A DNA stretch of 32,000 nucleotides from Mycolicibacterium smegmatis (GTDB taxonomy: Bacteria; Actinomycetota; Actinomycetes; Mycobacteriales; Mycobacteriaceae): NCBI RefSeq assembly GCF_001457595.1, contig NZ_LN831039.1, positions 6,720,001 through 6,752,000 of the forward strand. Reading direction: 5' to 3'. The notes beneath the pieces were generated by a model. That model made no database searches. It had not been told where the DNA came from and worked only from the letters and a program-made list of their open reading frames with translations. Position numbers and translations under genes: made by a program. This document shows, piece by piece, positions 8,620 to 30,307 of the stretch. How positions within the stretch are numbered: position 1 is the stretch's first letter; the number at the start of each line of letters is the position of its first letter.

Positions 8620-8636
8620 CGCGCCCCCTGACATAC

Positions 8637-8722: not shown

Positions 8723-8755
8723 GAGAACACCGCACCACGTGCCGCAGGAGGAACC

Positions 8756-9664: not shown

Positions 9665-9670
9665 CGGCCT

Positions 9671-12946: not shown

Positions 12947-14299
12947 ATGACAGCCACGTTGACGGGCGGACCCGATCTGCAGCAGGCCCGCCGGATCCTG
13001 ACCGAAATCCCCGGCCCACGGTCCCGTGACCTGGCCGAACGCCGCAACGCCGCGCTCCCGGCCGGCCTGGCGAGCGGGGCGGGGGTCTACATCGCCGCCG
13101 CAGGCGGCGGCGTGGTCGTGGACGTCGACGGCAATTCGTTCATCGATCTGGGCAGCGGCATCGCGGTCACCACGGTCGGCAACGCCGCACCTGCGGTCGT
13201 CTCGCGCGCGGGCAGCCAACTCGCGCAGTACACGCACACGTGCTTCCTGAACGTGCCCTACGAGCCGTACATCGAGGTCGCCGAGCGTCTCAATGCCCTG
13301 ACCCCGGGCGATCACCAGAAGCGCACCGCGCTGTTCAGCACGGGCGCCGAGGCCGTGGAAAACGCCGTCAAGTACGCACGCGCCCACACCGGTCGCGACG
13401 CGGTCGTGGTGTTCGACCACGCCTTCCACGGCCGGTCGCTGCTCACCATGACCATGACGGCCAAGAACCAGCCCTACAAGCACGGGTTCGGTCCGTTCGC
13501 CCCCGAGGTCTACCGCGCGCCCATGGCCTATCCCTACCGGTGGCCGTCGGGGCCCGAAAACTGCGCGGCCGAGGCGTTCGACCTGTTCACCACCCTGATC
13601 GACGCGCAGATCGGCGCAGATCAGGTGGCCTGCGTCGTGGTCGAACCCATCCAGGGCGAGGGCGGCTTCATCGTTCCCGCCGAGGGGTTCCTGCAGAAGG
13701 TCGCCGACTTCTGCCGTGAGCGCGGCATCCTGGTGGTGGCCGACGAGGTGCAGACCGGTATCGCGCGCACCGGCGCGTGGTTCGCGTGCGAGCACGAGGA
13801 CCTGGTCCCCGACCTCATCACCACCGCCAAGGGCCTGGGCGGCGGCCTGCCGCTGGCGGCGGTCACCGGCCGCGCCGAGATCATGGACGCCGCGCACGCG
13901 GGCGGCATCGGCGGCACCTACGCGGGCAACCCCGTCGCGTGCGCCGCGGCGCTCGGCGTGTTCGACGAGATCGAGCAGAACGGCCTGATCGAGCGCGCCC
14001 GCGCCATCGGCGAGGTGATCGTGGCAGAACTGCGCAGCATCGCCTCCACCACCGGCCTCATCGGCGAAATTCGCGGCCGCGGCGCCATGATCGCCGTCGA
14101 GCTGATCAAGCCCGGCACGCGCGAACCCAACAAGGAAGCCGTCGCCGCGCTGGCCAAGCACTGCCACGACAACGGTGTACTGACCTTGACGGCAGGCACT
14201 TTCGGCAACGTCCTGCGTTTCCTGCCGCCGCTGACCATCACCGACGAACTGCTCGTCGACGCCTTCGGCGTCATCCGCGACGGCTTCGCCGCCCTCTAG
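12947..14299 (+). CDS. gabT: Class-III PLP aminotransferase, 4-aminobutyrate/5-aminovalerate:2-oxoglutarate transaminase
   Basis: ATG 12947 gives the canonical GabT N-terminus (GGPDLQQARRILTEIPGPRS). It also carries DEVQTGIARTG and the PLP-lysine block TTAKGLGGGLPL. 450 aa. Confidence 0.92.
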   Translation: MTATLTGGPDLQQARRILTEIPGPRSRDLAERRNAALPAGLASGAGVYIAAAGGGVVVDVDGNSFIDLGSGIAVTTVGNAAPAVVSRAGSQLAQYTHTCFLNVPYEPYIEVAERLNALTPGDHQKRTALFSTGAEAVENAVKYARAHTGRDAVVVFDHAFHGRSLLTMTMTAKNQPYKHGFGPFAPEVYRAPMAYPYRWPSGPENCAAEAFDLFTTLIDAQIGADQVACVVVEPIQGEGGFIVPAEGFLQKVADFCRERGILVVADEVQTGIARTGAWFACEHEDLVPDLITTAKGLGGGLPLAAVTGRAEIMDAAHAGGIGGTYAGNPVACAAALGVFDEIEQNGLIERARAIGEVIVAELRSIASTTGLIGEIRGRGAMIAVELIKPGTREPNKEAVAALAKHCHDNGVLTLTAGTFGNVLRFLPPLTITDELLVDAFGVIRDGFAAL

Positions 14300-14318
14300 A
14301 AATCACCAGGAGCTCACC

Positions 14319-15512
14319 ATGACCCTCACCGCACCCACGAAGAAGTCCACCTACGCCCCGCTCGAGCTGTTCGACACCGACCGCCTGCTCGACCAGGACG
14401 AGCGCGACATCGCCGCAACCGTGCGACAGTTCGTCGACACCCGGCTGAAGCCCAACATCGAGGGCTGGTTCGAATCGGCCACTCTCCCACGCGAACTCGC
14501 TAAGGAGTTCGGCAATCTCGGTGTGCTGGGCATGCACCTGCAGGGTTACGGCTGCGCGGGCACCAACGCCGTGAGCTACGGCCTGGCCTGCATGGAACTC
14601 GAGGCAGGCGACAGCGGCTTCCGCAGCTTCGTGTCAGTGCAGGGTTCGCTGTCGATGTTCTCGATCTACCGCTACGGGTCCGAAGAGCAGAAGAACGAGT
14701 GGCTGCCCCGCCTTGCCGCGGGCGACGCCGTCGGCTGCTTCGGTCTGACCGAACCCGACTTCGGCTCCAACCCTGCCGGTATGCGCACCCGTGCGCGCCG
14801 CGACGGCAGCGACTGGATCCTCAACGGCACCAAGATGTGGATCACCAACGGCAACCTGGCTGACGTCGCCACGGTGTGGGCGCAGACCGACGACGGCATC
14901 CGCGGCTTCCTGGTTCCCACCGACACACCGGGATTCACCGCCAACGCGATCCACCGCAAGCTCTCGCTGCGCGCCTCGGTGACCTCCGAACTGGTGCTCG
15001 ACAACGTGCGCCTGCCCGCGTCGGCCCAGCTGCCGCTGGCCGAGGGCCTCTCGGCTCCGCTGTCGTGCCTCAACGAGGCCCGGTTCGGCATCGTGTTCGG
15101 CGCGCTGGGCGCCGCACGCGACAGCCTGGAGACCACGATCGCCTACACGCAGTCACGCGAGGTGTTCGACAAGCCGCTGTCGAATTACCAGCTGACGCAG
15201 GAGAAGCTGGCCAACATGACCGTCGAGCTGGGCAAGGGCATGCTGCTGGCCATCCACCTGGGCCGCATCAAGGACGCCGAGGGTGTGCGCCCCGAGCAGA
15301 TCAGCCTGGGCAAGCTCAACAATGTCCGCGAGGCCATCGCGATCGCCCGCGAGTGCCGGACCCTGTTGGGCGGCAGCGGGATCACGCTCGAGTACTCGCC
15401 GCTGCGTCACGCCAACAACCTGGAGTCGGTGCTCACCTACGAGGGCACCTCCGAGATGCATCTGCTGTCCATCGGCAAGGCGCTCACCGGAAAGGCGGCG
15501 TTCCGCGCATGA
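14319..15512 (+). CDS. gcdH: Glutaryl-CoA dehydrogenase
   Basis: AGGAG lies 6 nt upstream of ATG 14319. Near-colinear similarity to GCDH as I recall it: GVLGMHLQGYGCAG..VSYGL...ELE..DSGFRSF.SVQ.SL...IY.YGSEEQ...LP.LA.G...GCFGLTEP..GS.P..M.T.A......LNG.K.WITN...AD..VWA; LSLRAS.T...LDNV..P; YEGT..MH.L..G.A.TG..AF. Confidence 0.92.
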   Translation: MTLTAPTKKSTYAPLELFDTDRLLDQDERDIAATVRQFVDTRLKPNIEGWFESATLPRELAKEFGNLGVLGMHLQGYGCAGTNAVSYGLACMELEAGDSGFRSFVSVQGSLSMFSIYRYGSEEQKNEWLPRLAAGDAVGCFGLTEPDFGSNPAGMRTRARRDGSDWILNGTKMWITNGNLADVATVWAQTDDGIRGFLVPTDTPGFTANAIHRKLSLRASVTSELVLDNVRLPASAQLPLAEGLSAPLSCLNEARFGIVFGALGAARDSLETTIAYTQSREVFDKPLSNYQLTQEKLANMTVELGKGMLLAIHLGRIKDAEGVRPEQISLGKLNNVREAIAIARECRTLLGGSGITLEYSPLRHANNLESVLTYEGTSEMHLLSIGKALTGKAAFRA

Positions 15513-16972
15513 CCCCGGTGACCATCAACCACCTTGTTGCGGGCGAGTGGGTGGCCGGTGCGGGCGACGTCGTCGTCAGCGTCAACCCGGCCCACCCGGG
15601 CGACATCGTGGCCGAGGGACACAACGCGACCACCGCGCAGGTCGACACCGCGGTCGCGGCCGCCGCCGAGGCGTTCCGTGCATGGGCGGCCACCCCGACG
15701 CACCAGCGTGGTGCGGTGCTGCTGGCCGCCGCGCAGATCGTCGACCGCAACGCCCAGGCCTGGGGTCTGGAACTGGCCACCGAAGAGGGCAAGACCAAGG
15801 CCGAGGGCATCGGTGAGGTCAAGCGCGCCGCACAGATCCTGCGGTACTACGGCAACGAGGGCGACCGGCAGGCAGGCGAGATCTTCTCGTCACCCCGTGC
15901 CGGCGAACAGATCCTGGTGACCCGCAAGCCACTCGGTGTGGTCGGCGTCATCACCCCGTTCAACTTCCCCATCGCCATTCCGGCGTGGAAGATCGCGCCT
16001 GCCCTGGTGTACGGCAACACCGTGGTGTGGAAGCCCGCGAGCACCGTTCCGGTGCTGGCGATCCGCTTCGCGCAGGCACTCACCGAGGCCGGTCTGCCCG
16101 CGGGTGCGCTGAATCTGGTGATCGGTGACTCCGAGACCGGAACCGCGATCGTCGACCATCCCCGCATCGACGGTCTGACGTTCACCGGATCCACCGCGGT
16201 GGGCCGTCGTCTCGCGTCCGTGGCCGCGACGTGCGGCATCCCGATGCAGGCCGAGATGGGCGGCAAGAACGCCGCCGTGGTGCTCGACGACGCCGACCTG
16301 GACGTGGCCGTCGAACAGGTGATGCTGGGTGCGTTCCGGTCGACCGGCCAGAAGTGCACCGCCACATCCCGTTTGATCGTCACCGACGGCATCGCCGACA
16401 AGTTCACCGAGGCACTGGTCGAACGGGCCCGCGCACTGCGGGTCGGCGACCCCACCGACGACGCCACCGAGATGGGTCCGGTGATCACCGACGCGTCCCG
16501 CGCGTCGATCCTGGCCGGGATCGACACTGCCGTCGCACAGGGCGCCACGGTGCTCGCCGGTGGGCGGCCCTACACCGAAGGCCCGCTCGCCGAGGGGTAC
16601 TTCATCGCCCCGACCGTGCTGGAACTCGACGGTTCCCCGGCCAAGGTGTGGAGCGAGGAACTGTTCGGACCGGTGCTGGCGGTCCGCCGCGCGGCCGACG
16701 CCGACGAGGCGTTCGAGCTCGCCAACGACAGCGAGTTCGGCCTGTCCGCGGCGATTTTCACGCAGGATGTGACCCGGGTGCTGCAGGCCATGGAGCAGAT
16801 CGACGTCGGTGTGCTGCACGTCAACTCCGAGTCCGCCGGCGCCGATCCGCATGTGCCGTTCGGTGGCGACAAGAAGAGCGGTCTGGGCCCCAAGGAACAG
16901 GGGGCCGCGGCACGGGATTTCTTCACCCACACCACCACCGTGTACCTGCGGGGCGGGCGGCCGGGCGTATGA
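15509..16972 (+). CDS. NAD(P)-dependent aldehyde dehydrogenase (candidate glutarate-semialdehyde or gamma-glutamyl-aminoaldehyde dehydrogenase)
   Basis: ATG 15509 overlaps the gcdH stop (ATGA). ALDH motifs VITPFNFP, WKPAS, FTGST.VG, EMGGKN and catalytic Cys GQKCTATSR. 487 aa. Confidence 0.9.
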   Translation: MTPVTINHLVAGEWVAGAGDVVVSVNPAHPGDIVAEGHNATTAQVDTAVAAAAEAFRAWAATPTHQRGAVLLAAAQIVDRNAQAWGLELATEEGKTKAEGIGEVKRAAQILRYYGNEGDRQAGEIFSSPRAGEQILVTRKPLGVVGVITPFNFPIAIPAWKIAPALVYGNTVVWKPASTVPVLAIRFAQALTEAGLPAGALNLVIGDSETGTAIVDHPRIDGLTFTGSTAVGRRLASVAATCGIPMQAEMGGKNAAVVLDDADLDVAVEQVMLGAFRSTGQKCTATSRLIVTDGIADKFTEALVERARALRVGDPTDDATEMGPVITDASRASILAGIDTAVAQGATVLAGGRPYTEGPLAEGYFIAPTVLELDGSPAKVWSEELFGPVLAVRRAADADEAFELANDSEFGLSAAIFTQDVTRVLQAMEQIDVGVLHVNSESAGADPHVPFGGDKKSGLGPKEQGAAARDFFTHTTTVYLRGGRPGV

Positions 16973-18072
16973 GCGCGGCCGCACTCGAGGGCGTCGTCGT
17001 CGCGGACTTCAGCCGCGTGTTGGCCGGGCCGTACGCGACGATGATGCTCGCGGACTTCGGCGCCGAGGTCATCAAGATCGAGCGGCCGGGCACCGGGGAC
17101 GACACCCGACAGTGGGGCCCTCCGTACGACTCGACCGGCGTGGCAACGTATTTCAACTCGGTCAACCGCAACAAACGCTCGGTCGCACTGGACCTGGGCA
17201 GCACGGAAGGACGCGAGCAGGCGCGTGAGCTGATCCGCCGCGCCGACATCGTGGTCGAGAACTTCCGACCGGGCACGATGGAGAAACTCGGCCTCGGCTA
17301 CGACGACGTCCGCGCGATCCGCCCCGACGTCATCTACTGCTCGATCACGGGATTCGGCCACGGCGGCGGGGCCGCCCTGCCGGGCTACGACCTGCTGGTG
17401 CAGGCCGTCGGCGGTCTCATGAGCGTCACCGGCACCGAACCGGGCGATCCCACCAAAGCCGGTGTGGCACTGGTGGATGTGCTGGCCGGTATGCATGCGC
17501 TCAGCGGCATCCTGGTCGCCCTGGCGCACCGCGACCGCACGGGCGAGGGCCAGCGGGTCGACACCAACCTGTTCTCGGTGCTGCTGTCGTCGATGGTCAA
17601 CCAGGCGTCGGGTTATCTGGGCGCCGGTGTGGTGCCGGGCATCATGGGCAACCGGCATCCGAGCATCACGCCGTACCAGACCTTCGACACCGCCGACCGG
17701 CCCATCGCGATCGCGGTGGGCAACGACAAGCAGTTCCGGGCGTTCGCCGCGGTGATCGGCAGTCCCGACCTCGCCGACGACCCGCGGTTCTCGACCAACC
17801 CGCAGCGGGTGGCCCACCGGGACGTGCTGTGTCCCTTGATCGAGGCCGCGCTCAAGGCCAAGGGCGCCGACCACTGGTATCACGAACTGACCGCGGTCGG
17901 GGTGCCCGCGGGACCCATCAACGACCTGTCGGAGGCGTTCGCGTTCGCCGAGGAACTTGGCATCGAGGCCGTGGTGCAGATGCCCGACGGTCCGACTCCG
18001 CAGGTCGCCAACCCGATCACGCTGTCGGCGACCCCGGTGACCTACCGCAACAGCCCGCCTCCGCTCAGCTGA
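16969..18072 (+). CDS. Family III (CaiB/BaiF) CoA-transferase (candidate glutarate CoA-transferase)
   Basis: ATG 16969 overlaps the ALDH stop (ATGA). N-terminal LEGVVVADFSRVLAGPYATMMLADFGAEVIKIERPGTGDDTRQWGPP is typical of family III CoA-transferases. 367 aa. Confidence 0.9.
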   Translation: MSAAALEGVVVADFSRVLAGPYATMMLADFGAEVIKIERPGTGDDTRQWGPPYDSTGVATYFNSVNRNKRSVALDLGSTEGREQARELIRRADIVVENFRPGTMEKLGLGYDDVRAIRPDVIYCSITGFGHGGGAALPGYDLLVQAVGGLMSVTGTEPGDPTKAGVALVDVLAGMHALSGILVALAHRDRTGEGQRVDTNLFSVLLSSMVNQASGYLGAGVVPGIMGNRHPSITPYQTFDTADRPIAIAVGNDKQFRAFAAVIGSPDLADDPRFSTNPQRVAHRDVLCPLIEAALKAKGADHWYHELTAVGVPAGPINDLSEAFAFAEELGIEAVVQMPDGPTPQVANPITLSATPVTYRNSPPPLS

Positions 18073-19576
18073 GGCCGGGCCGTTCGCGGCTCACCAGCAG
18101 TTGCCACGCGCGGATCGCGAGCCACAGCTGGGCACGGGTGTCGGCCGTGCCGAGGTCGTCGGCGAGCAGATCACTGATGCGCCGCATCCGGTTTCGCATG
18201 GTGTGGCGATGGATCTGGAGTTCACTCGCGGCGGCCTCGAGCTGACCGTTGTGGCGCAGGAACGCCGTCAGCGCGTCGATCAGTTCGTCGCCTCCTGCGA
18301 GCAGAGGCTCGATGGGTTGGGCGAGCACACGCAGTTCCGCGGTGCTGCGCCCGCCAAGCAACGTGCCGAACACCTTGACCTCGGTGAACTCGGTGATGTT
18401 GCGCCGGGAGTTGGAATGCGCTGCGATCCTGGCCTGCTCGGCCCCGACGACCGCATCGGCGAGGCGCACCGGCTGGCTGGCCCCGCCTCTGACGGTGCGC
18501 CCGGTGACACGTCCGAACTCCTCGACCGCGGCATAGACGCGCCTGCGCCGGGCTGCGTGCACGATGATCGCGAACTCGTCGCCCGTGCTGGTCATCAGGT
18601 ACGACCCGGCCGGTGCGAGGCGCTGCCCCAGATCGTCCTGCGCCGTCAACAGCGGCGTGAACCCAGTGAGCAGCAGGACGACCACCTCGTCGTCGGGCTG
18701 AAAACCCAAGTACCGCAACACCGCACTGTCGGTGGTGCCGGTGCCCGAGAGGATGTCGCGGGTGACGGCGGAGCGCAGCCGGTCCTCGGCGTCGACCACC
18801 CGCGCGGGTTTCTCCAGTTCGATCGAGATGAGCGATACGGCGTGCGCGACGAGCAACCGCTGCGAGTTGGACATCGGCTGCTCGGTGCGCACCGCGAGAT
18901 GCCCGCGCACGGGCTGTGCGGCGCGCAGGGTCTGCACGGTGACATAACCATCCGCGTCGGCGACCACGCCGGCCTGCGCACGCGCACCGGCGCGCCGTGA
19001 CGCCTCCAGCACCTCGACCAATCGCTGGTCGGCCGCACCACGGGTGGCCAGGATGCGGCCCTCGATGTCGGCGACGACGACTGTCGCGGAGAGGCATTCG
19101 GCGAGAGCGTTGACGACCGCGGGGATGCCGCCGCGCAGTGTGGCCCGCGCCAGCACCTGCTGTTGATCGACCATGCGCTGCACGGCGCTCAGTTCGTCGG
19201 CCTTGACGGCGTCGATCACCACGCGGGCGATCGCGATGAACGGTGTCGAGGCAGGCACCTCGAGCACCGGCAGCCCCAGTTCGTCGCCTGCGGCCAGCAC
19301 GGCCGCGGGCACCTCCTGCAGCGTGGTGCCGGTGTCGACGGCGAGCGCCGCGATGCCCGCCGCCGACAGCCGTGCGACGTAGTCGCGTTGTTCGCCGGCT
19401 CCGGCACCGATGTTGATGCCGGTGGTCATGACGAGCTCGCCACCCGCCAGATACGGTGTGGGATCGCGCAACTCGTTGGCGTGGGCCCAGGCGATCTCCC
19501 GGTCCGCGCCCTGCGCGCCGGCCAGCAGCGACAGGCCGAGCGACTCGACCTGTGCCAGCCCGCGCGCGGTGATCAC
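18065..19576 (-). CDS. PucR-family transcriptional regulator
   Basis: N-terminal PurC-like domain (LGLSLLAGAQGADREIAWAHANELRDPTPYLAGGELVMTTG). C-terminal PucR HTH (LEAAASELQIHRHTMRNRMRRISDLL). I chose the start at GTG 19576 because it overlaps the upstream stop (GTGA) and gives the canonical N-terminus. The track start at 19693 would overlap the upstream gene by 121 nt. Confidence 0.82.
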   Translation of the reverse strand: MITARGLAQVESLGLSLLAGAQGADREIAWAHANELRDPTPYLAGGELVMTTGINIGAGAGEQRDYVARLSAAGIAALAVDTGTTLQEVPAAVLAAGDELGLPVLEVPASTPFIAIARVVIDAVKADELSAVQRMVDQQQVLARATLRGGIPAVVNALAECLSATVVVADIEGRILATRGAADQRLVEVLEASRRAGARAQAGVVADADGYVTVQTLRAAQPVRGHLAVRTEQPMSNSQRLLVAHAVSLISIELEKPARVVDAEDRLRSAVTRDILSGTGTTDSAVLRYLGFQPDDEVVVLLLTGFTPLLTAQDDLGQRLAPAGSYLMTSTGDEFAIIVHAARRRRVYAAVEEFGRVTGRTVRGGASQPVRLADAVVGAEQARIAAHSNSRRNITEFTEVKVFGTLLGGRSTAELRVLAQPIEPLLAGGDELIDALTAFLRHNGQLEAAASELQIHRHTMRNRMRRISDLLADDLGTADTRAQLWLAIRAWQLLVSRERPGLS

Positions 19577-21808: not shown

Positions 21809-23190
21809 GGTGCGTCGCTCCAATACATTTCGCGTTCCCAGTCGGTCACATATCCACAGAACCTGGCCCACTCGTCGGCGTGGAAGTCGATGAGCAGCGA
21901 GGAGAGGTCCGGTCCGAGCGCCTGCGTGAGCACCTCGTCGGCACGGAACGCCTCGATGGCCTCGCCGAGCGTCAACGGCAGTGCGGGGAACCGGGTGTCG
22001 ACGAGCGCGTCGTAGGACGAGCCCTGGGTCGGCGCACCCGGATCGATCTCGTTCTTCATGCCGTCCTCGCAGGCCGCGAGGATCACGGCGTGCGACAGGT
22101 AGGGGTTGACCGCGGCGTCGGGCAGCTTGTACTCGAGGCGGCCGACAGCCGACAACCGCACGGTGCAGGTCTTGTTGTCCAGGCCCCAGTTGATGCGTGA
22201 CGGCGCGAATTGTCCTGCGTCCCAGTACCGTTTGTACGAGTTCACCGTGGAGCCGTTGATCAGCATGGCGCCGGCCGAGTGCGCGAGCAGGCCGCCGAGC
22301 GCGTGCTGGCCGAGTTCGGACAGGTGCAACTCGGTGACGCCGGGTTCGGCGAGCACGTTGACACCGTCGCGCCACAGGCTGAAGTTGTGGTGGCAACCGT
22401 TCCCCATCATTCCGGTGGCGGGCTTGGGCATGAAGCTCGCCTGGATGCCGAGCTCGCGTGCCACCTGCTTGCAGATCTGCCGGTAGGTGGTCAGGCGGTC
22501 GGCGGTGAGATCGGCCCGGTCGTACATGAAGTTCAGTTCGACCTGGAACTCGTCCTCGTAGTCGCCCTCGATCATGTCGAGGCCGAGCGCCTGGGCGTAC
22601 TCGACGACCTTCTTGACGATCGGACGGTTCCGCTCGAGATGCTCGATGTGATAGGCGGGGCTTGACCCGGGGCGGAACTGCGCTTCCAAACCCTCACCCT
22701 GCCAGGTCATCTCGGGCTCGCAGCCGGTGCGCAGCTCCAGACCCGTGCGGTCGGTGAAACCGGCGTGCAGGCGCCGCAGCAGCCCGCGGGAGTCACAGGC
22801 GAATTCGGCGCCTGCACGTTCGGCCAGGTGATCGGGTTCGTACAACCGGCAGAACACTCGCGCGAAACTGGTGTCCCACGGCAGCACCGCGAAGGTCTCC
22901 AGATCCGGGATCGCGGTGTACTCAGGGGCGTTCACGCCACCGGCGAGCAGCACACCCTCGCGGGTGCCCTGCAGGTTGGCCACCGCGGTCTGGTGCTGCT
23001 GCACACCCCTGACGGCGAGGCGTTCGAAGTGCTTGGCGGGAGCGACCTTGCCCACGACCCGGCCCGTGATGGTGACGGCCTGGAAGTAGACGAACTCGAC
23101 TCCCCGTTCGGCGATGGTCTCGAGTACGGCAGCGAGGTCGGGGCTCGTGGCGTTGGCCTGCCGGTGCGCGTCAAGGGGTGTGATGGTCAT
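21805..23190 (-). CDS. Glutamine-synthetase-like ligase (candidate gamma-glutamyl-amine/amide synthetase, PuuA/IpuC/GlnA3-4-like)
   Basis: 461 aa. GS catalytic-domain block ASFMPKPATGMMGNGCHHNFSLW, and an N-terminal GS beta-grasp (VEFVYFQAVTITGRVVGKVAP). GAGGA SD inside the end of the ferredoxin gene. Confidence 0.9.
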   Translation of the reverse strand: MTITPLDAHRQANATSPDLAAVLETIAERGVEFVYFQAVTITGRVVGKVAPAKHFERLAVRGVQQHQTAVANLQGTREGVLLAGGVNAPEYTAIPDLETFAVLPWDTSFARVFCRLYEPDHLAERAGAEFACDSRGLLRRLHAGFTDRTGLELRTGCEPEMTWQGEGLEAQFRPGSSPAYHIEHLERNRPIVKKVVEYAQALGLDMIEGDYEDEFQVELNFMYDRADLTADRLTTYRQICKQVARELGIQASFMPKPATGMMGNGCHHNFSLWRDGVNVLAEPGVTELHLSELGQHALGGLLAHSAGAMLINGSTVNSYKRYWDAGQFAPSRINWGLDNKTCTVRLSAVGRLEYKLPDAAVNPYLSHAVILAACEDGMKNEIDPGAPTQGSSYDALVDTRFPALPLTLGEAIEAFRADEVLTQALGPDLSSLLIDFHADEWARFCGYVTDWEREMYWSDAP

Positions 23191-23195
23191 GGTGA

Positions 23196-23384
23196 TCAGT
23201 CCTCGATCGTGATGGCCTGGAGCGGGCAGACGTCAGCGGCCTCCTCGACCGCGAACCGCTCGGATTCCGAAGGCGTGCTGATGTATTCGAGGACGCCGTC
23301 GTCGGTCATCGAGAACACCGAGGGGGCGGCGATGACGCACTGGCCGTGGTCCTGACAGCGGTTGAGATCAACGGAGACTCGCAT
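23196..23384 (-). CDS. Small 3Fe-4S-type ferredoxin (P450 redox partner)
   Basis: 62 aa from ATG 23384, with AGGA 6 nt upstream. The track TTG 23390 abuts the SD directly. Cluster ligands CQDHGQC ... CP (DLNRCQDHGQCV...ADVCPLQAI) are typical of actinobacterial P450-linked ferredoxins. Confidence 0.85.
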   Translation of the reverse strand: MRVSVDLNRCQDHGQCVIAAPSVFSMTDDGVLEYISTPSESERFAVEEAADVCPLQAITIED

Positions 23385-23413
23385 GATCAATCCTTTGGGT
23401 TGGGCTGTTGGAG

Positions 23414-23439
23414 CGTTCAGGGGGCTCGTTCAGGGGGCC
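23414..23439. repeat. 13-nt tandem duplication spanning the P450 stop codon
   Basis: cgttcagggggct (23414-23426) is directly followed by cgttcagggggcc (23427-23439), 12 of 13 identical. The real P450 stop is the tca at 23430-23432. Confidence 0.9.
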
Positions 23440-24632
23440 GGGGTGAAACCGATCGGCAGTGTGTTGGGTCCGGTGTTGCCCGAGTCGGGCAGCCAAGTGG
23501 CGCCGGGCAACTCATGCGGGTCGCGCAGGCGGCGGGCCAGCAGCGGCAGCGCCTCGCTCATGTCCGAGCGGGCCACGAAGTGGCCGAGGCAGTGGTGGAC
23601 CCCACCGCCGAAACCGAAGTGCGGCTTGCGTTCTGCGGTGATGTCGAAGCCCGGCTCGAACACGCGCGGGTCGGTGCCTGCCGACTCGCTGTACAGGTGC
23701 ACGGTGGTGCCGGCCTTCAGCGTCACGCCTTCGTACTCGAAGTCCTCGACCACCTCGCGGGTCACCCACCGCACGGTGGGGTTGACGCGCATGACCTCCT
23801 CGACGGCCTTGCCGCCGAGATCGGGACGCTCGCCGAGCAGACGCCACTGGTCCGGATGCTTCATGAACGTCTGCATCGCCAGGCCCAGCTGGTTGCGGGT
23901 GGTGTCGAAGCCCCCGAATATCAGCAGCAGGATGGCATCTCGCAGCTCTTTGTCGCTGAGCCTGCCGTCGTCCGGACGCGACGCATTGACCAGCGTGGTC
24001 ATGAAGTCGTCGCGCGGGTTGGCCCGGCGGTCCGCGATCAACTCGTCGCTGTACTCGTACAACCGCTGCACGGCGGCCTCGATCTTGGGCAGGTCCTCGC
24101 GCAGCGTGACGCCCAGGGCCAGGCCGATGGTCGCGGACTCGGTCGAGATGACCTTCCACTCCTCTTCGGGCAGGCCGAGCATGATCGCGATGACCCGCGC
24201 CGCGTACGGTTCGGCGAACTCGCTGACGAACTCGCAACGATCGGGTTCGGCGAAGTTGTCGATGAGTTCGTTTGCCAGCGCCTGGAATCGGGGCACCAGC
24301 GACCCGATCAGCTTGGGCGAGAACGCGGGGTTCATGAGCCGGCGCAGCCGGTGGTGTTCCTCGCCTTCCTTGTTGAGGATCCAGCTGGCGAACCACTCGG
24401 CGAACGGGCCCTCCGTGACGCCGTTGTGCGCAGGCCACGCGGCGCTGCCCTGGCGCAGTTTGGGGTGCTTGATCAGGCGGTTGACCTGCTCGTAGCGCAA
24501 TACAGCCAGCCCGTAGGGCGTCGTTGCGTACCAGCTCTTCTCGCGGGCTTCGTGGACCTCGTCCGAGGTGATCGAGAATGCCGGGTCCGTGACATCAAAA
24601 CTGGGGACTGAGTCGAGGGTGGTCGACGACAT
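23430..24632 (-). CDS. Cytochrome P450 monooxygenase (possibly the piperidine/pyrrolidine/morpholine-type mycobacterial P450 class)
   Basis: Heme-thiolate loop FGFGGGVHHCLG, ExxR (EEVMR) and I-helix-like LLLIFGGFDTT. ATG 24632 has GGAGG 8 nt upstream. The track TTG 24647 lies inside that SD. 400 aa. Confidence 0.92.
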   Translation of the reverse strand: MSSTTLDSVPSFDVTDPAFSITSDEVHEAREKSWYATTPYGLAVLRYEQVNRLIKHPKLRQGSAAWPAHNGVTEGPFAEWFASWILNKEGEEHHRLRRLMNPAFSPKLIGSLVPRFQALANELIDNFAEPDRCEFVSEFAEPYAARVIAIMLGLPEEEWKVISTESATIGLALGVTLREDLPKIEAAVQRLYEYSDELIADRRANPRDDFMTTLVNASRPDDGRLSDKELRDAILLLIFGGFDTTRNQLGLAMQTFMKHPDQWRLLGERPDLGGKAVEEVMRVNPTVRWVTREVVEDFEYEGVTLKAGTTVHLYSESAGTDPRVFEPGFDITAERKPHFGFGGGVHHCLGHFVARSDMSEALPLLARRLRDPHELPGATWLPDSGNTGPNTLPIGFTPAP

Positions 24633-24782
24633 CAGTGCTACCTCCAAGGGTTCGCGACCGAACGGTCACTAAATACTCTAGAAGTAGATTGTTAAAGTCA
24701 ATAGGTCGACAACTGTCAATTTTCGGGGTTTTTGTTAAGGCTCCATTACGCCTGTTAGAACTGCGTTACTCACCGGTAGAAA
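24633..24782 (-). promoter_or_regulatory. AT-rich control region upstream of the P450 operon (promoter plus probable operator repeats)
   Basis: G+C is visibly far below the flanks. Minus-strand reading: aTTGACAgttgtcgacctaTTGACTttaacaatctacttcTAGAGTatttag. That gives two TTGAC boxes 19 nt apart and a TANNNT -10 candidate, TAGAGT. Plus-strand TGTTA(A/G) boxes lie at 24690, 24733 and 24753. CAATAGG at 24699-24705 is shared with the 26361 inverted repeat. Confidence 0.4.
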
Positions 24783-25499
24783 TCATGCGATTGCAACGAC
24801 CCAGCCGGTCCCCAGCGGCATTTCGGCCACCTCACGGAACTCGTCGGGACCCGGATTCGCGCTCTGCTCCGGCATCTGCGGCAGCCTCGACCCGACGAAC
24901 CACCGCGGCGTGTTCGCGGCCAGAACGCGCCGCTCGGTATTGACCACGACGGCGTCGCGCGCGGTCTGACGCAGGACCGCGAGCAGGTTGCGCTCGACCT
25001 CGCCGACCACCAGGTCGGCACCCGCGATGCCCAGGAACACCTCGTCGGCAACCACGGGGACCGTGGCCGTGATGGTGTACATGTCCGAACCGCTGTAGTC
25101 GACATACGGGCCGTAGGCCACGCGGGCCTGGCCACGCTGCGCCAGCTGGTAGAAGTCCATCTGCAGGTAGTCGTACACGTCCACGCTGGTCGGGTCGAAG
25201 TTGAGCCGTAGCCGGGCCACCCGGTCGTCGCCGCGACGCTGCCACCAGGCCAGATAGCGCTCCTTGCCCTCGACCACGAACGGTGCGGCGATGAACCCCA
25301 TGCCCCATACGTCGTGGCGGCCCTGCAACACGTCGGCGAGCCGGCGCTGCAGCCCACTGAAGTGCGCCTCGGTCAGCGGCGCGCGCGGCGGCCTGATGGC
25401 GAGCACGTCCTCACGGATGCTCTCGAGCAGCCCGAACAGCGGCTCGAGCGCGTCCGAGGCTTCCTTGGCCAAGAGCTCGGCCAGCTGATCTCCACTCAT
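24783..25499 (-). CDS. Stand-alone soluble Cache/PDC-like sensor-domain protein (no output domain, no TM)
   Basis: 238 aa. The pattern ...MGFIAAPF...YLAWWQR......LNFDP.S.DVYDYLQMDFY......VAYGPYVDY.G...YTIT.TVPV....FLGIAGADL is what I associate with actinobacterial cache-domain-containing proteins. ATG 25499 overlaps the GntR stop (ATGA). The family call was made by eye only. Confidence 0.6.
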   Translation of the reverse strand: MSGDQLAELLAKEASDALEPLFGLLESIREDVLAIRPPRAPLTEAHFSGLQRRLADVLQGRHDVWGMGFIAAPFVVEGKERYLAWWQRRGDDRVARLRLNFDPTSVDVYDYLQMDFYQLAQRGQARVAYGPYVDYSGSDMYTITATVPVVADEVFLGIAGADLVVGEVERNLLAVLRQTARDAVVVNTERRVLAANTPRWFVGSRLPQMPEQSANPGPDEFREVAEMPLGTGWVVAIA

Positions 25500-26233
25500 C
25501 GGCCGGCCTCCTTCGTCGTGAGATCCAGGTTGATCTGGGTCAGCCGCGCGAGCTGCCCCATCACATGAGCCTCGGCCAACTGGCGGGCCTCCTGTGCGTT
25601 TTCGGCAGCAATGGCAGCAGAGATCGCGTGCTTCTCCTCCACATAGGCGGCCACATCGATGGGTGGCCCGATCGGTAACCAGATCAGGCCCGACACCTCG
25701 GCCTGCAGGTTCGCCTCGCGGCGCGCCAGGCGAGCCGACTGGGCGGCGACCGCGACCTGGATGTGGAACCGGCTGTCGGCCCGGATCCGGTCACGCAGCG
25801 ACGTCGCGGTGTCGAGTTGATCGGTCAGCGCGAACAACCGCCGCACGGTCGACGGCGCGGCCCGCTCGGCGGCCAATCGGGCGGCCTGACCGGCGATCGC
25901 GGTGTGCTCGTCGAACAGATCTCGCAGGTCAGAGGCGCTCATGGCGGCAAGCCGGGCGGTCAGCTTCTCGACCGGCGGCCCTGCGGGCCTGCGGACGAAC
26001 GACCCACCGCTGCGCCCGCGGCGGGTCTCCACCAGCTCGAGTTCACGCAGCGTCGCGAGCGCCTCGCGCACGGTCATCGGGGCGACGCCGAACTGCGCGG
26101 CCAGGTCGACCTCCACCGGCAGGCGTTCACCGTCATCCAGCAGACCCAGATGGATGGCCTCGGTGATGCGCTGCACGATCTCGTCGGCGCGACCCACGGG
26201 AGCCTCGGGCGCGACGAGCGGCGACAGCGACAC
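25496..26233 (-). CDS. GntR-family (FadR/FCD subfamily) transcriptional regulator
   Basis: wHTH ADEIVQRITEAIHLGLLDDGERLPVEVDLAAQFGVAPMTVREALATLRELELVETRRGRSGGSFV, followed by an all-helical FCD-like domain. GTG 26233 is preceded by GGAAGGAGA. The track start 26398 adds a low-complexity, poor-GC3 extension. Confidence 0.85.
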   Translation of the reverse strand: MSLSPLVAPEAPVGRADEIVQRITEAIHLGLLDDGERLPVEVDLAAQFGVAPMTVREALATLRELELVETRRGRSGGSFVRRPAGPPVEKLTARLAAMSASDLRDLFDEHTAIAGQAARLAAERAAPSTVRRLFALTDQLDTATSLRDRIRADSRFHIQVAVAAQSARLARREANLQAEVSGLIWLPIGPPIDVAAYVEEKHAISAAIAAENAQEARQLAEAHVMGQLARLTQINLDLTTKEAGR

Positions 26234-26343
26234 CGGCGGTTCTCCTTCCGAGATACAGGTGGGCGATCCCGGCGGGGACCGATTCGCCGAAGTGGCGTCT
26301 GGAGATGTCGGCAATCTACCCGATTTGCGACGAATTCTGCCGT

Positions 26344-26377
26344 TCCTATTGCCGGATAAACAATAGGACTGTAGTTT
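26344..26377 (+). promoter_or_regulatory. Inverted repeat overlapping a candidate promoter of the APC permease operon
   Basis: TCCTATTG (26344-26351), a 9-nt spacer, then CAATAGGA (26361-26368): a perfect 8-bp inverted repeat. Candidate -35 TTGCCG (26349-26354), a 17-nt spacer, then -10 TAGTTT (26372-26377). Confidence 0.4.
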
Positions 26378-26418
26378 TTCGCTCACTTGGCGCAGCACCT
26401 CCAGCAGAAAGCAGGCTG

Positions 26419-27915
26419 ATGTCTATTTCCAAGTCCCCTGTCAGTCCCTCGGAAGGGGCTCACGCGTCCGATTCGGACGCCGCGCATCTGGACAAGCTCG
26501 GCTACAAATCCGAGTTCAAGCGGGATATGAGCCCCTGGGCCAACTTCTCGCTCGGTTTCACCTACCTGTCCCCGGTCGTCGGTATCTACACACTGTTCGC
26601 CTACGCGCTGGCCACCGGCGGCCCGCCGATGATCTGGAGCCTCGTGATCGTCGGCGTCGGCCAGCTGCTGGTCGCGTTGGTGTTCAGCGAGGTCGTGGCC
26701 CAGTTCCCGGTGGCGGGCGGGGTGTACCCGTGGGCACGCCGGCTGTGGGGACGCAAATACGCCTGGATGACCGGGTGGGTGTACCTCGTGGCCCTGCTGG
26801 TGACGATCGCGTCGGTGACCTACGGTTCCGGCCCGTTCATCGCCGCCACGTTCGGCATCGAGGCCACCGTGAACAACACCATCGCGTTCGCGCTGGTGTT
26901 GCTCGCCCTGGCCACGATCATCAACTTCATGGGCACGAAAGTGCTTGCGAAAGCAGCGATCATCGGTTTCACCGCCGAGATCATCGGTGCCCTGGTGGTC
27001 GGTGGCTGGCTGCTGATCGCGCACCGCGAGCACAACCTCGGCGTCATCTTCGACAGCTTCGGCGCAGGCGGCGACGGCAGCTACCTGTGGGCCTTCGCGG
27101 CCGCGGCGCTGATCGGCGTCTACCAGTACTACGGTTTCGAGGCCTGCGGCGATGTCGCCGAGGAAGTGCGCGATCCGGGTCGCCTGATCCCCAAGGCCAT
27201 GCGCCGCACCATCTACATCGGCGGTGCCGCAGCCACTTTCGTGTGCCTGTCGCTGGTTCTCGCGGTGGCCGACATTCCCGCGGTGATCGCCGGCGAGGAC
27301 GTCGACCCGGTCAGCACCGTGCTCACCGAGGCGTTCGGTCCGATCGGCTCCAAGGTCATCCTGGTGATCGTGCTGCTGTCGTTCTTGTCCTGCGCGATGA
27401 GCCTGCAGGCCGCCGCGAGCCGCCTGGCCTACTCGTACGGCCGTGACGGCATGATCATGGGCAGCAGCCTGCTCAAGAAGTTCTCGGCTTCTCGCCACGT
27501 CCCGCCTTACGCGCTGATCCTGGCCGCCATCGTGCCCGCCGTGATCATCATCGGGTCGAAGGTCTCCACCGACGCGATCACCAAGATCATCAGCTTCGCC
27601 GCCTTCGGGATCTACCTGGGCTTCCAGATGGTCGTGCTGGCCGCGCTGCGTGCCCGCCTCAGGGGCTGGGTGCCGTCGGGCAAGTACACGCTGGGCAGGT
27701 GGGGTGTGCCGGTCAACATCGCGGCGCTGGTCTACGGCATCACCGCCATGGTGAACATGGCGTGGCCCCGCACTCCCGACGCACCCTGGTTCGACAACTG
27801 GATCGTCGCGCTGTCCGCGGCCGTGGTCGTGGTGACCGGCCTGGTCTACATGGCCGTCCACCCCCTGCACGACCGCAGCACGGCGCCCTACTCCGACGCC
27901 ATTCCGACAAAGTAG
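26419..27915 (+). CDS. APC-superfamily amino acid/amine permease
   Basis: ATG 26419, 498 aa, about 12 hydrophobic helices. N-terminal LGYKSEFKRDMSPWANFSLGFTYLSPVVG and internal FEACGDVAEEVRDP are typical of APC permeases. Confidence 0.9.
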   Translation: MSISKSPVSPSEGAHASDSDAAHLDKLGYKSEFKRDMSPWANFSLGFTYLSPVVGIYTLFAYALATGGPPMIWSLVIVGVGQLLVALVFSEVVAQFPVAGGVYPWARRLWGRKYAWMTGWVYLVALLVTIASVTYGSGPFIAATFGIEATVNNTIAFALVLLALATIINFMGTKVLAKAAIIGFTAEIIGALVVGGWLLIAHREHNLGVIFDSFGAGGDGSYLWAFAAAALIGVYQYYGFEACGDVAEEVRDPGRLIPKAMRRTIYIGGAAATFVCLSLVLAVADIPAVIAGEDVDPVSTVLTEAFGPIGSKVILVIVLLSFLSCAMSLQAAASRLAYSYGRDGMIMGSSLLKKFSASRHVPPYALILAAIVPAVIIIGSKVSTDAITKIISFAAFGIYLGFQMVVLAALRARLRGWVPSGKYTLGRWGVPVNIAALVYGITAMVNMAWPRTPDAPWFDNWIVALSAAVVVVTGLVYMAVHPLHDRSTAPYSDAIPTK

Positions 27916-27960
27916 GCGCGCCGCCCGCCCGCCCGCTCGCTCACGATCGAAAGAGATGTC

Positions 27961-29343
27961 TTGACCGCCACCGCCCAGCCGCCGTACCGGAGCACCAACC
28001 CGGCCACCGGCAACGTTCTCGCAGAGTTCGACACCACCACCGACGATCAGGTCTTTGCGGCGATCGCCGCGGCCGATGAGGCGTTCCGTTCTTGGCGCTC
28101 AACGCCTCTGGACGAACGCACCGACGTCGTGCGGACGGTGGGAAAGCTCCTGCGCGAACGTGCCGACGACTTCGCGAAGTTGGCACAGTTGGAGATGGGC
28201 AAGAAACGCGGTCAAGGCGCCGGGGAGACCCGGTTCTCCGCATCGATCTTCGAGTTCTACGCCGACCGTGGCGCCGGCCTGCTCGCCGATGAACCGATTC
28301 CGACGTTCACCGGCGGGCAGGCGGTGATCCGGCGGCAACCGGTGGGTGTGCTTCTCGGCGTCATGCCGTGGAATTTCCCGGTCTACCAGATCGCGCGTTT
28401 CGCGGCTCCGAACCTGGTGCTGGGCAACACCATGCTGCTCAAGCACGCCGAGTCGGTTCCCCAGTGCGCGCTGGCCTTCGCCGAGTTGATGCGCGACGCC
28501 GGCGTGCCCGAAGGCGTGTACACCAACCTGTTCGCGACGTTCGATCAGGTGGCGACGATCATCGCCGATCCGCGTGTGCAGGGAGTTTCGGTCACCGGAT
28601 CCGAGCGTGCCGGTGCGGCCGTCGCGGGCTTGGCCGGGCAGTCCCTGAAGAAATGCGTGCTCGAGCTGGGCGGCTCGGACCCGTTCATCGTGCTCGACGG
28701 CGACCCGAAGGAACTGGCCCGCACCGCCTGGAACTTCCGCATGCACAACATGGGACAGGCGTGTAACTCCAACAAGCGCATCATCGTCCTCGACACCATC
28801 TACGACGACTTCGTCACCGAGTTGGTCGCCGCGGCAGAGGCTTTCACCGGTGACCAGATCGCGCCGCTGTCGTCGCGGGCAGCGGCCGAGAACCTGGCCG
28901 CCCAGGTCGACGACGCGGTCGACAAGGGTGCGACGCTGCACACCGGCGGCGTGCTGGCCGAGGAGCCGAAGGCGTACTTCACCCCGGCCGTGCTCACCGG
29001 CGTGACCCCCGGGATGCGGGCCTACACCGAGGAACTGTTCGGCCCGGTCGCCGTGGTCTACCGCGTCGCCGATGCGGAAGAGGCTGTCGCGCTGGCCAAC
29101 TCCACGGATTTCGGCCTGGGGGCGTCGGTCTTCAGCGCTGACACCGCCCGTGCCGAAGCCGTGGCCCGCCGCCTCGAAGCCGGCATGGTCAACGTCAACA
29201 CCCCGTCCGGCGACGGCCCCGACATCCCGTTCGGCGGCATCAAGCGGTCCGGGTTCGGCCGCGAACTCGGCACGCTCGGCATCGACGAGTTCGTCAACAA
29301 GCAGGTCTACGTCGTCGCCGAGTCGACATCGTCGTCAGACTGA
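27961..29343 (+). CDS. NAD(P)+-dependent succinate/glutarate-semialdehyde dehydrogenase (Sad/YneI-like ALDH)
   Basis: TTG 27961. Colinear with E. coli YneI as I recall it: NPATG...; MPWNFP.YQ; LLKHA..VP.CA; VTGS.RAGAAV...AG..LKKCVLELGGSDPFIVL; GQ.C...KR; FGGIKRSGFGRE. 460 aa. Confidence 0.9.
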   Translation: MTATAQPPYRSTNPATGNVLAEFDTTTDDQVFAAIAAADEAFRSWRSTPLDERTDVVRTVGKLLRERADDFAKLAQLEMGKKRGQGAGETRFSASIFEFYADRGAGLLADEPIPTFTGGQAVIRRQPVGVLLGVMPWNFPVYQIARFAAPNLVLGNTMLLKHAESVPQCALAFAELMRDAGVPEGVYTNLFATFDQVATIIADPRVQGVSVTGSERAGAAVAGLAGQSLKKCVLELGGSDPFIVLDGDPKELARTAWNFRMHNMGQACNSNKRIIVLDTIYDDFVTELVAAAEAFTGDQIAPLSSRAAAENLAAQVDDAVDKGATLHTGGVLAEEPKAYFTPAVLTGVTPGMRAYTEELFGPVAVVYRVADAEEAVALANSTDFGLGASVFSADTARAEAVARRLEAGMVNVNTPSGDGPDIPFGGIKRSGFGRELGTLGIDEFVNKQVYVVAESTSSSD

Positions 29344-30219: not shown

Positions 30220-30307
30220 AGGTTCGCCACAGGTATTCCGCACCGGCGGCAGACGCGCGATCCTATGGGGTGACCGTCGACGTACGACAGAGTTGAAGGA
30301 GGCCTGC

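Follow-up and report, generated by a model that had tools for sequence, protein, structure and literature searches.

Gene content, conservation and proposed chemistry of the piperidine/pyrrolidine-degradation (pip) locus of Mycolicibacterium smegmatis and its convergent operon

The stretch of DNA analysed here, hereafter called the window, is 32,000 nucleotides (nt) long and was taken from Mycolicibacterium smegmatis (contig NZ_LN831039.1, positions 6,720,001 to 6,752,000); its G+C content is about 68%. The segment 12947-29343 of this window is the piperidine/pyrrolidine-degradation (pip) locus of this species, as judged from the identity of its cytochrome P450 with PipA, the identity of its GntR-family protein with PipR, and the literature on MSMEG_6693, MSMEG_6695 and MSMEG_6700. 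We consider it moderately probable that the segment forms a catabolic island, in which piperidine or pyrrolidine is gamma-glutamylated and then attacked by the P450, and in which a convergent operon leads on to crotonyl-CoA under a predicted regulatory scheme. A pathway of this kind had been put forward in an initial annotation of the segment; the proposal is plausible, and gains real comparative support from the analysis described here. The same annotation held the system to be undescribed, which is only partly true: the core corresponds to the published pipR-pipA-ferredoxin-glutamine synthetase (GS) locus, and the pip and mor loci had been cited there only as analogues, the segment being the pip locus itself. 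What appears to be new is the full list of parts around pipA, the recurrent link with a module containing glutaryl-CoA dehydrogenase (GcdH), the coupling of a PucR-family regulator and two odd binding proteins. The P450, the regulator and the locus are known already, there are precedents for the chemistry, and the downstream module belongs to ordinary metabolism.

Real genes were told apart from many spurious open reading frames (ORFs) by the G+C content of third codon positions (GC3), and the chosen ORFs were scanned with Pfam and NCBIfam. All the genes named in the initial annotation were found by this procedure. The minus-strand operon, in order of transcription, encodes the P450, a ferredoxin, a GS-like ligase, a protein of the SBP_bac_3 family (SBP, solute-binding protein), two Peptidase_C26 hydrolases and a PucR-family regulator. 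Upstream of the P450 gene and on the same strand lie the genes for a GntR/FCD regulator and a dCache protein of 238 amino acids (aa), and the genes for an APC permease and a second aldehyde dehydrogenase (ALDH) are divergent from them. The permease, the Sad-like dehydrogenase and the GntR regulator had thus been placed correctly beside the P450, with the dCache gene between GntR and P450 left unmentioned. The genes of this part are as follows.

25496..26233, minus strand: PipR, FadR-subfamily GntR regulator, 245 aa, MSMEG_6700 (PF00392 and PF07729)
24783..25499, minus strand: soluble stand-alone dCache_1/PDC protein, 238 aa (PF22673, E = 2.6e-08)
23430..24632, minus strand: cytochrome P450 PipA (CYP151A1, MSMEG_6695), 400 aa, identical to that of strain mc2155
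23196..23384, minus strand: ferredoxin, 62 aa (PF13370 and PF13459), with a CQDHGQC...CP motif
21805..23190, minus strand: GS-like ATP-dependent ligase, MSMEG_6693 protein (PF00120, E = 2.1e-70)
21089..21808, minus strand: cytoplasmic SBP_bac_3-fold protein (PF00497, E = 3.2e-25)
20379..21125, minus strand: PuuD-like Peptidase C26 hydrolase a, C26a (PF07722, E = 2.9e-54)
19573..20382, minus strand: PuuD-like Peptidase C26 hydrolase b, C26b (PF07722, E = 3.7e-37)
18065..19576, minus strand: PucR-family regulator, last gene of the pip operon (PF07905 and PF13556)
26419..27915, plus strand: APC-superfamily permease, 498 aa, proposed to serve in amine uptake (PF13520 and PF00324)
27961..29343, plus strand: aldehyde dehydrogenase, succinate-semialdehyde dehydrogenase (SSADH)/Sad-like (PF00171, E = 9.3e-127)

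The locus is the same as that of M. smegmatis mc2155 with the order pipR-pipA-orf1(ferredoxin)-orf2'(GS). The window belongs to another strain than mc2155, and its proteins, looked up as exact sequences, occur in M. smegmatis genomes. PipA is 100% identical over 400 aa to ABK70871/AFP42941 of mc2155, starting at ATG 24632 (400 aa) and not at TTG 24647, and the ferredoxin is identical to AFP42940. PipR is the mc2155 protein ABK69644/AFP42945; it starts at GTG 26233, preceded by the ribosome-binding site GGAAGGAG, and falls within the 90% cluster of AAD28343.1, which was deposited beside PipA AAD28344.1. The GS-like protein likewise falls into the same 90% cluster as its mc2155 counterpart. Under the nomenclature rule of more than 40% identity, PipA belongs to CYP151 by its identity with mc2155 PipA (100%), with MorA AAV54064.1 of Mycobacterium sp. 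HE5 (87%) and with a P450 of Gordonia sp. KTR9 (71%); its best match in PDB is AurH (3p3l). The motif CxxHxxC...CP, as read from the ferredoxin sequence, is of the 3Fe-4S type, and this ferredoxin, the proposed redox partner of PipA, is followed directly by the GS-like gene, as in the known pip locus. The P450 and the regulator of pip were published in 1999 (Poupin et al., J Bacteriol 181:3419, cited in passages of PMC9477822 and PMC2018728), and the requirement of the locus for growth on piperidine and pyrrolidine comes from the literature only (Poupin 1999, cited in the same passages). A passage of PMC9477822 describes induction of pipA on piperidine, and MSMEG_6700 is named a regulator of piperidine and pyrrolidine metabolism in a passage of PMC2018728. 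With the P450 being PipA/CYP151A1 itself, the assignment of saturated cyclic secondary amines as the substrate class is well founded.

One difference from mc2155 was noted. In that strain IS1096 lies between pipR and pipA, and MSMEG_6695 is listed as a cytochrome P450 adjoining the IS1096 tnpA gene MSMEG_6697 (PMC3662644). The window is uninterrupted at this point, the stop of dCache and the start of pipA being just 150 bp apart. The dCache protein of mc2155 is the same as that of the window up to residue 237, diverges at residue 238 and reads on for 51 aa, so that IS1096 appears to sit at the last codon of the dCache gene and to part pipR-dCache from pipA. The absence of IS1096 is a strain difference and does not make this a different locus.

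Read from gene identities, residue patterns and synteny, each chemical step of the route would be as follows. A cyclic amine would be imported by the APC permease, and the GS-like ligase would use ATP and glutamate for conversion to the gamma-glutamyl amide, masking the basic nitrogen. PipA, together with the 3Fe-4S ferredoxin and a reductase encoded elsewhere, would then hydroxylate the carbon next to the nitrogen, and the resulting carbinolamide would open to gamma-glutamyl-5-aminopentanal, or to its C4 analogue in the case of pyrrolidine. An ALDH would oxidize the gamma-glutamyl aminoaldehyde, synteny favouring the enzyme of 27961-29343, and a C26 hydrolase would free glutamate together with 5-aminovalerate (from piperidine) or 4-aminobutyrate (GABA; from pyrrolidine). 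The convergent operon would convert 5-aminovalerate via glutarate semialdehyde, glutarate and glutaryl-CoA to crotonyl-CoA. Both 5-aminovalerate and glutarate were reportedly seen by nuclear magnetic resonance during mycobacterial degradation of piperidine, and Pseudomonas sp. KU43P is said to gamma-glutamylate piperidine before hydroxylation by a P450.

For comparison of gene order, homologues of the GS-like protein were aligned, giving 80 actinobacterial loci with 10-kb flanks and one genome per species, onto which the proteins of the window were mapped; counts of gene presence refer to the 60 full-length loci among these 80. The permease, GntR, dCache, P450, GS-like, SBP-like, C26a and C26b genes were each found in 88-100% of these loci, in the same order and orientation, and the ferredoxin was detected in 77%. 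The order of the core recurred in 60/60, so that the arrangement is not due to chance. The loci came from Mycolicibacterium, Nocardioides, Streptomyces, Actinomadura, Intrasporangium, Humibacillus, Millisia, Trebonia, Nanopelagicales and others, and the genes from the P450 through ferredoxin, ligase and SBP-like protein to the two hydrolases follow one another closely or overlap. As a separate observation, Mycolicibacterium chlorophenolicum DSM 43826 carries two sets of GS-like, SBP and hydrolase genes (L018 and L029), and in L018 the P450, dCache and GntR genes were not detected.

Gamma-glutamylation before the P450 attack is favoured by two properties taken together, the loss of the ammonium-binding residues in the ligase and the retention of the PuuD triad in the hydrolases. 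The initial annotation had called the enzyme a glutamine-synthetase-like ligase, and by its alignment with E. coli GlnA and PuuA it is no ordinary glutamine synthetase. Residues E130, E132, E221, H270, R322, R345 and E358 (E. coli GlnA numbering) are invariant, keeping the metal, ATP and glutamate sites, and the ammonium loop Asp50-Ser53 is deleted. Glu327 of the flap is replaced by Phe (Tyr in PuuA), and this Phe is found in 80/80 orthologues. The nearest solved structures are those of glutamate-methylamine ligases (9qur, 7cql). The enzyme is only 26% identical to PuuA, and it fails the equivalog models for gamma-glutamylputrescine synthetase (NF045547; 199 vs 650 bits) and for type III GS (TIGR03105; 283 vs 470 bits). 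Judged from its sequence, the ligase is thus a clade separate from both, for which we propose a function as gamma-glutamyl-piperidide/pyrrolidide synthetase. MSMEG_6693 is listed in the literature as a putative GS beyond glnA1-4 (PMC7816997).

The two hydrolases are PuuD-like, as had been noticed: both align with C114, H222 and E224 of PuuD. C26a is 34% identical to E. coli PuuD and keeps the triad in 73-74/74 orthologues, and the Cys-His-Glu triad of C26b is kept in 70/70. On the model for gamma-glutamyl-GABA hydrolase (NF008471) the scores of the two were 75.8 and 49.9 bits, below the cut-off of 266. From aniline degradation, a hydrolase is known that acts as a safety valve by removing an excess of gamma-glutamyl amine; one idea, by analogy, is that the second C26 enzyme may hydrolyse excess gamma-glutamyl amine in this way.

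The classical model of cyclic amine degradation orders these events differently. According to this model, PipA hydroxylates the free cyclic amine, the aminoaldehyde or cyclic imine is converted to the omega-amino acid, and the ligase and the hydrolases serve another purpose, such as nitrogen capture, the detoxification of amine present in excess or the handling of other amines. Oxidation of morpholine by the MorA system, described in a passage of PMC9477822, agrees with it, as do the position of ligase and hydrolases below all equivalog cut-offs and the finding of no mycobacterial gamma-glutamyl intermediate in the literature searched. Against these stand two findings: the genes for ligase, P450 and both hydrolases are conserved together, and translationally coupled within a single operon, in different genera, and the ammonium-site residues are lost in all 80 ligase orthologues. 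In addition, free morpholine, piperidine and pyrrolidine are reported to have given no substrate-binding spectrum with P450mor, and gamma-glutamyl routes are said to operate on piperidine in strain KU43P and on isopropylamine in the ipu system. On balance we regard the classical model as unlikely.

Cadaverine or putrescine had also been named as possible substrates. If such linear di- or polyamines were the main substrates, the system would be Puu-like with the P450 in place of PuuB, and the list of parts, a ligase, ALDHs, C26 hydrolases and a GabT-type transaminase, is indeed Puu-like. The P450, however, is PipA, tied in the literature to the use of piperidine and pyrrolidine; the ligase shows 26% identity to PuuA and 199 bits, against the 650 required, on the gamma-glutamylputrescine synthetase model; a PuuB-type oxidase is missing from the locus; and M. 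smegmatis has separate GlnA3 and GlnA4 paralogues. Diamines are therefore highly improbable as the main substrates. A true Puu-type polyamine pathway was rejected on the low identity to PuuA and the failed cut-off.

We turn to the plus-strand operon at 12947-18072, which encodes the predicted five-carbon (C5) half of the route:

12947..14299, plus strand: GabT/DavT-type class-III aminotransferase, 450 aa (PF00202, E = 3.5e-122)
14319..15512, plus strand: glutaryl-CoA dehydrogenase GcdH, 391/397 residues identical to PDB 3swo
15509..16972, plus strand: aldehyde dehydrogenase, proposed glutarate/succinate semialdehyde dehydrogenase (PF00171, E = 5.6e-156)
16969..18072, plus strand: family III CoA-transferase, proposed succinyl-CoA:glutarate CoA-transferase (PF02515, E = 9.4e-125)

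The last three genes run into one another, with 4-nt overlaps at both the GcdH/ALDH and the ALDH/CoA-transferase junctions. The two operons do converge as annotated: they stand tail-to-tail, and the stop regions of the CoA-transferase and PucR genes share 8 nt (18065-18072). The aminotransferase passes the cut-offs for GABA transaminase on both NF004714 (710.7 vs 639 bits) and TIGR00700 (581 vs 507), and an identical M. smegmatis protein carries the annotation 4-aminobutyrate transaminase; we propose that it would form glutarate semialdehyde from 5-aminovalerate, or succinate semialdehyde from GABA. GcdH shares 98.5% identity with 3swo, the glutaryl-CoA dehydrogenase of M. smegmatis, and matches human GCDH with E = 3.8e-106; it keeps Arg94, Ser95 and Glu370 of the human enzyme, its segments DSGFRS and TYEGT aligning with DSGYRS and TYEGT. 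Among NCBIfam models, the ALDH of this operon best matches enzymes acting on C5 semialdehydes (GucD and 2,5-dioxovalerate dehydrogenase), both below cut-off; it is 34% identical to PuuC and travels only with the block of aminotransferase, GcdH and CoA-transferase. The CoA-transferase scores 359 bits on the succinate--glutarate CoA-transferase model NF052585, which is its best NCBIfam match and yet below the cut-off of 750, and it matches human SUGCT (PDB 9br7) with E = 1.9e-85. Its family is clear, and we infer its glutarate specificity from the context.

In about 15 Mycolicibacterium loci the block of aminotransferase, GcdH, ALDH and CoA-transferase, together with PucR, adjoins the core in the arrangement of the window. 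In Nocardioides, Marmoricola, Microtetraspora and uncultured relatives, GcdH (63-68% identity) and the CoA-transferase (53-58%) lie beside the core in other positions and orientations, and aminotransferase and GcdH genes were also found near the core in four loci of a divergent Mycolicibacterium clade. Altogether, 28/60 loci have GcdH no more than 10 kb away from the core, and at least three different arrangements occur across genera. Repeated linkage in different arrangements is good evidence of a functional connection, though not of an obligatory one. Together with the retained GcdH residues, the linkage of GcdH and the CoA-transferase to the core in several arrangements lends support to the glutarate-CoA half of the annotated pathway.

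The two halves could nevertheless be independent of each other, the aminotransferase, GcdH, ALDH, CoA-transferase and PucR forming a general module for 5-aminovalerate, GABA or glutarate (for instance for carbon from lysine or cadaverine) that merely adjoins pip. Consistent with this view, many Mycolicibacterium loci with an intact core lack the block in their flanks, and it has no operator motif in common with the pip promoters. The second GcdH paralogue of M. smegmatis (PDB 3sf6, E = 1.4e-178), encoded elsewhere, can be read in two ways: it speaks for independence of the halves, and the existence of another copy means that the one at 14319-15512 may be dedicated to the pip cluster. What speaks against independence is the recurrence of GcdH and CoA-transferase by the core, in varied order, in Nocardioides, Marmoricola, Microtetraspora and the second Mycolicibacterium clade; co-location by chance within 10 kb in 28/60 loci is very improbable for a gene present once or twice per genome; and PucR is translationally coupled to the last pip gene. 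We therefore take independence of the halves to be quite unlikely, and keep to a connected route from the cyclic amine to crotonyl-CoA.

For the regulation of this route, four candidate elements were located in the promoter regions:

12874..12899, plus strand: imperfect inverted repeat G.ACA-N16-TGTCC, candidate operator, possibly that of PucR, at least 80% conserved in 20 Mycolicibacterium loci
24654..24704, minus strand: putative pipA promoter region with TTGAC (-35), TAGAGT (-10) and an operator-like GTGACC-N4-GGTCGC, a strongly conserved block in 24 Mycolicibacterium loci
24734..24769, minus strand: GlnR-box-like repeats GTAAC-n6-CTAAC and GTAAT-n6-TTAAC, read from the sequence
26344..26368, no strand assigned: perfect inverted repeat with 8-nt arms, TCCTATTG-N9-CAATAGGA, candidate operator in the pipR/permease divergent region

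The elements at 24654-24704 and 12874-12899 would, from their position and conservation, act in transcription of the pip and C5 operons, respectively. As the repeat at 12874-12899 lies between two possible starts of the aminotransferase gene, the start at 12947 is favoured. A repeat like that at 26344-26368 arose by chance in 21/100 shuffled sequences; 36 Mycolicibacterium loci share its left half and flank. Control of the pip promoters would lie with PipR, perhaps assisted by the co-transcribed dCache protein as an amine-binding partner. The likely start of PucR, GTG 19576, overlaps the stop of C26b by 4 nt (19573-19576), which makes PucR part of the pip operon, and PucR occurs only in loci with the aminotransferase-GcdH block, plus L027 and L029. 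From this overlap and this co-occurrence we propose a cascade in which release from repression by PipR would lead to synthesis of PucR as the last pip gene product, and PucR in turn would switch on the C5 operon; that PucR activates this operon, perhaps in response to an omega-amino acid, is what we infer. The earlier view of PucR and GntR as joint controllers of one unit does not hold in that form: the halves have no operator motif in common, and PucR travels with the C5 block and not with the core.

Nitrogen control is probably added by GlnR. In mc2155, peak 49 of GlnR chromatin immunoprecipitation sequencing (ChIP-seq) adjoins MSMEG_6695, with expression unchanged under nitrogen limitation (PMC3662644), and the repeats at 24734-24769 match the position of this peak. 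An element GTAAC-n6-TTAAC is kept in six of the loci compared. Apart from this ChIP peak, only incidental mentions were found when the literature was searched for expression data on MSMEG_6685-6702. A scan of the window with the sigma-70 consensus gave no matches, and terminator-like sites were fewer than in shuffled sequences; such a scan is uninformative for a GC-rich genome. An ATTG-N5-11-CAAT pattern present in the window was not conserved as such.

The dCache protein may be a cytoplasmic amine sensor or binding partner of PipR. Its gene is translationally coupled to pipR, with a median GntR-dCache gap of -3 nt in 69 loci. The AlphaFold (AF2) model was of moderate quality, with low confidence near the pocket (predicted local distance difference test, pLDDT, 78; predicted template modelling score, pTM, 0.77). 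In Foldseek its top matches were amine chemoreceptor domains, those of McpU (putrescine), TlpQ (a histamine receptor), PctC (GABA), PacA and CqsR (ethanolamine), and template modelling (TM) scores of 0.65-0.71 to 6f9g, 6fu4 and 7psg are consistent with a double-PDC fold of the predicted model. A PYVD motif of the PYxD type is invariant in 73 orthologues. Unlike the chemoreceptors, the protein carries neither a hydrophobic segment nor any other domain, and thus has no membrane location and no output domain. It is unusual for a Cache protein to stand alone in the cytoplasm and to be coupled with a GntR regulator. The family is small, with 241 proteins at E <= 1e-5, all of about 230-250 aa, and it appears to be tied to pip-type clusters.

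The SBP-like protein is a probable cytoplasmic binder of an alpha-amino-acid moiety. In PDB it best matches AncQR (4zv1, E = 5.7e-23), and its closest relatives are glutamine/arginine-binding and glutamate-binding proteins. In 79 loci the orthologues begin within a few codons of the GS stop, with a GS-SBP gap of about -19 nt as projected from the alignment; an exported binding protein was rejected, as a signal peptide could not be fitted in at these 79 loci. Arg83 and Asp167-169 are invariant, as are the CGQG-I-T-x-x-R loop and the DDD motif. Since the Arg and Asp by which an alpha-amino acid is held are retained, the protein could bind the gamma-glutamyl amide, a look-alike of glutamine. Put together, a wider picture can be drawn of a pan-actinobacterial pip module of about ten genes, with three uncharacterised integral proteins, namely a soluble dCache amine sensor working with the GntR repressor PipR, an SBP-fold protein that binds the gamma-glutamyl amide and hands it to the P450 or otherwise acts on it, and a second C26 enzyme as safety valve, and with a PucR feed-forward cascade to the C5 operon. 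We offer this combination tentatively and regard it, taken as a whole, as doubtful; if true, it would add a new layer of regulation and substrate handling to a known type of pathway.

As to uptake, the permease gene is present and divergent from pipR in 58/60 loci, and its exact sequence is annotated in M. smegmatis. The Sad-like ALDH of 27961-29343 gave its best NCBIfam matches with SSADH models, below cut-off, and is 30% identical to PuuC. Homologues (51-61%) lie directly after C26b in Nocardioides-type loci, and an orthologue follows the permease in many Mycolicibacterium loci. By synteny, the Sad-like ALDH would go with the core and the plus-operon ALDH with the glutarate module; the annotated roles of the two are uncertain. 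The PuuC-like step may be better ascribed to the former, proposed as a gamma-glutamyl-aminoaldehyde and/or succinate semialdehyde dehydrogenase, and the oxidation of glutarate semialdehyde to the latter; this division is weak, given the small share of loci with any ALDH in or beside the core.

In the electron transfer chain, the distance between the ferredoxin and GS genes is bimodal across loci, either about 17 nt or about 1250 nt, and a 407-aa ferredoxin reductase of the FAD (flavin adenine dinucleotide) type fills the gap in 32/60 loci (53%), as in L003 (8741-9964). In the window the distance is 5 nt (23190-23196).

A number of observations weigh against the gamma-glutamylation/P450 route as a whole. 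Recombinant MorA, reconstituted with ferredoxin and reductase, oxidized free morpholine, as described in a passage of PMC9477822. A gamma-glutamyl intermediate was not found for any mycobacterium in the literature searched, and a search for gamma-glutamyl piperidine, pyrrolidine or morpholine gave nothing. The ligase and the hydrolases stay below every NCBIfam equivalog cut-off. With the L003 reductase as the query, tblastn of the window gave nothing below E = 0.1, so that PipA must borrow a reductase from elsewhere in the genome. No more than 22/60 loci have an ALDH within or beside the core, and about half of the loci lack the C5 block in their 10-kb flanks. An operator common to both halves was not found, the conserved motifs differing among the three promoter regions. 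Finally, three proteins conserved in the core, namely the dCache and SBP-like proteins and one of the two hydrolases (the second), have no role in the pathway scheme.

The surroundings of the locus were also inspected. Directly upstream of the cluster, 11611-12705 on the plus strand is a 364-aa ORF with coding-like GC3 and with no match in Pfam or NCBIfam. The region 1-11614 contains parts of an ABC transporter, an amidase, two LysR regulators, DUF5994, a metallo-beta-lactamase-fold protein, a DUF417/MauE-like membrane protein and a peroxiredoxin, and no link of these with the cluster was seen. On the other side, 29389-31863 encodes an F420-dependent oxidoreductase of the luciferase-like monooxygenase (LLM) class, which passes TIGR03619, an IclR regulator and a shikimate-dehydrogenase-like protein, none of them conserved with the pip core.

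Saturated N-heterocycles such as piperidine, pyrrolidine and morpholine are in common use in industry and as building blocks of drugs, and their best-known degraders are mycobacteria. A complete map of genes to steps in a tractable model organism would test gamma-glutamyl masking as a general way for P450 enzymes to handle basic cyclic amines; it could explain why P450mor did not bind its supposed substrates, and clarify the origin of the xplAB island. The gain is incremental, since the P450 and the regulator are known, the chemistry has precedents and the downstream module belongs to standard metabolism. The earlier pip sequence is said to have ended inside the GS gene, leaving the SBP-like protein, the two hydrolases, PucR and the C5 operon undescribed.

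Among known systems, the closest to the locus are the morABC genes with a GS-like ORF of Mycobacterium sp. HE5 and RP1, encoding the morpholine monooxygenase P450mor: the P450 is 87% identical, the ferredoxin is the same, and a GS-like gene follows. The mor loci, however, carry the reductase gene morC between the ferredoxin and GS genes, which the window lacks, and the mor strains also use morpholine. The pip cluster of Pseudomonas sp. KU43P, which is proteobacterial, reportedly combines a gamma-glutamylpiperidide synthetase with a P450, the same chemistry as proposed here. The Puu pathway of E. coli (PuuA, PuuB, PuuC, PuuD and PuuE) follows the same logic of gamma-glutamyl protection, oxidation, ALDH, C26 hydrolase and GabT-type transaminase, with the PuuD triad conserved. 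The pip system has a P450 and a ferredoxin in place of the FAD oxidase PuuB, for which the Pfam and NCBIfam scans of 12947-29343 found no counterpart; with the ligase 26% identical to PuuA and the ALDHs 30-34% identical to PuuC, the two systems are not orthologous. The enzymes of the C5 operon carry the catalytic residues expected from the 5-aminovalerate/glutarate route (DavT, DavD, CoA-transferase and GcdH; SUGCT and GCDH in human), from which the window differs in that the four genes form one operon, tail-to-tail with the amine-activation operon, their specificities being predicted. The xplAB region of plasmid pGKT2 of Gordonia sp. KTR9 (L083, 7155-14166), detected by tblastn of plasmids, shows the same order of GntR/FCD regulator, cache protein, CYP151 P450 (71%) and GS-like protein (71%); the names XplR and Cyp151C are in use for this cluster, which also occurs in Rhodococcus. 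There the GS-like frame stops matching at residue 390 and abuts the FAD reductase XplB, followed by the P450 XplA, and the SBP-like and hydrolase genes are missing. As far as the gene order and identities go, the xplAB island for degradation of RDX (hexahydro-1,3,5-trinitro-1,3,5-triazine) looks like the remnant of a pip-type cluster reworked for a nitramine.

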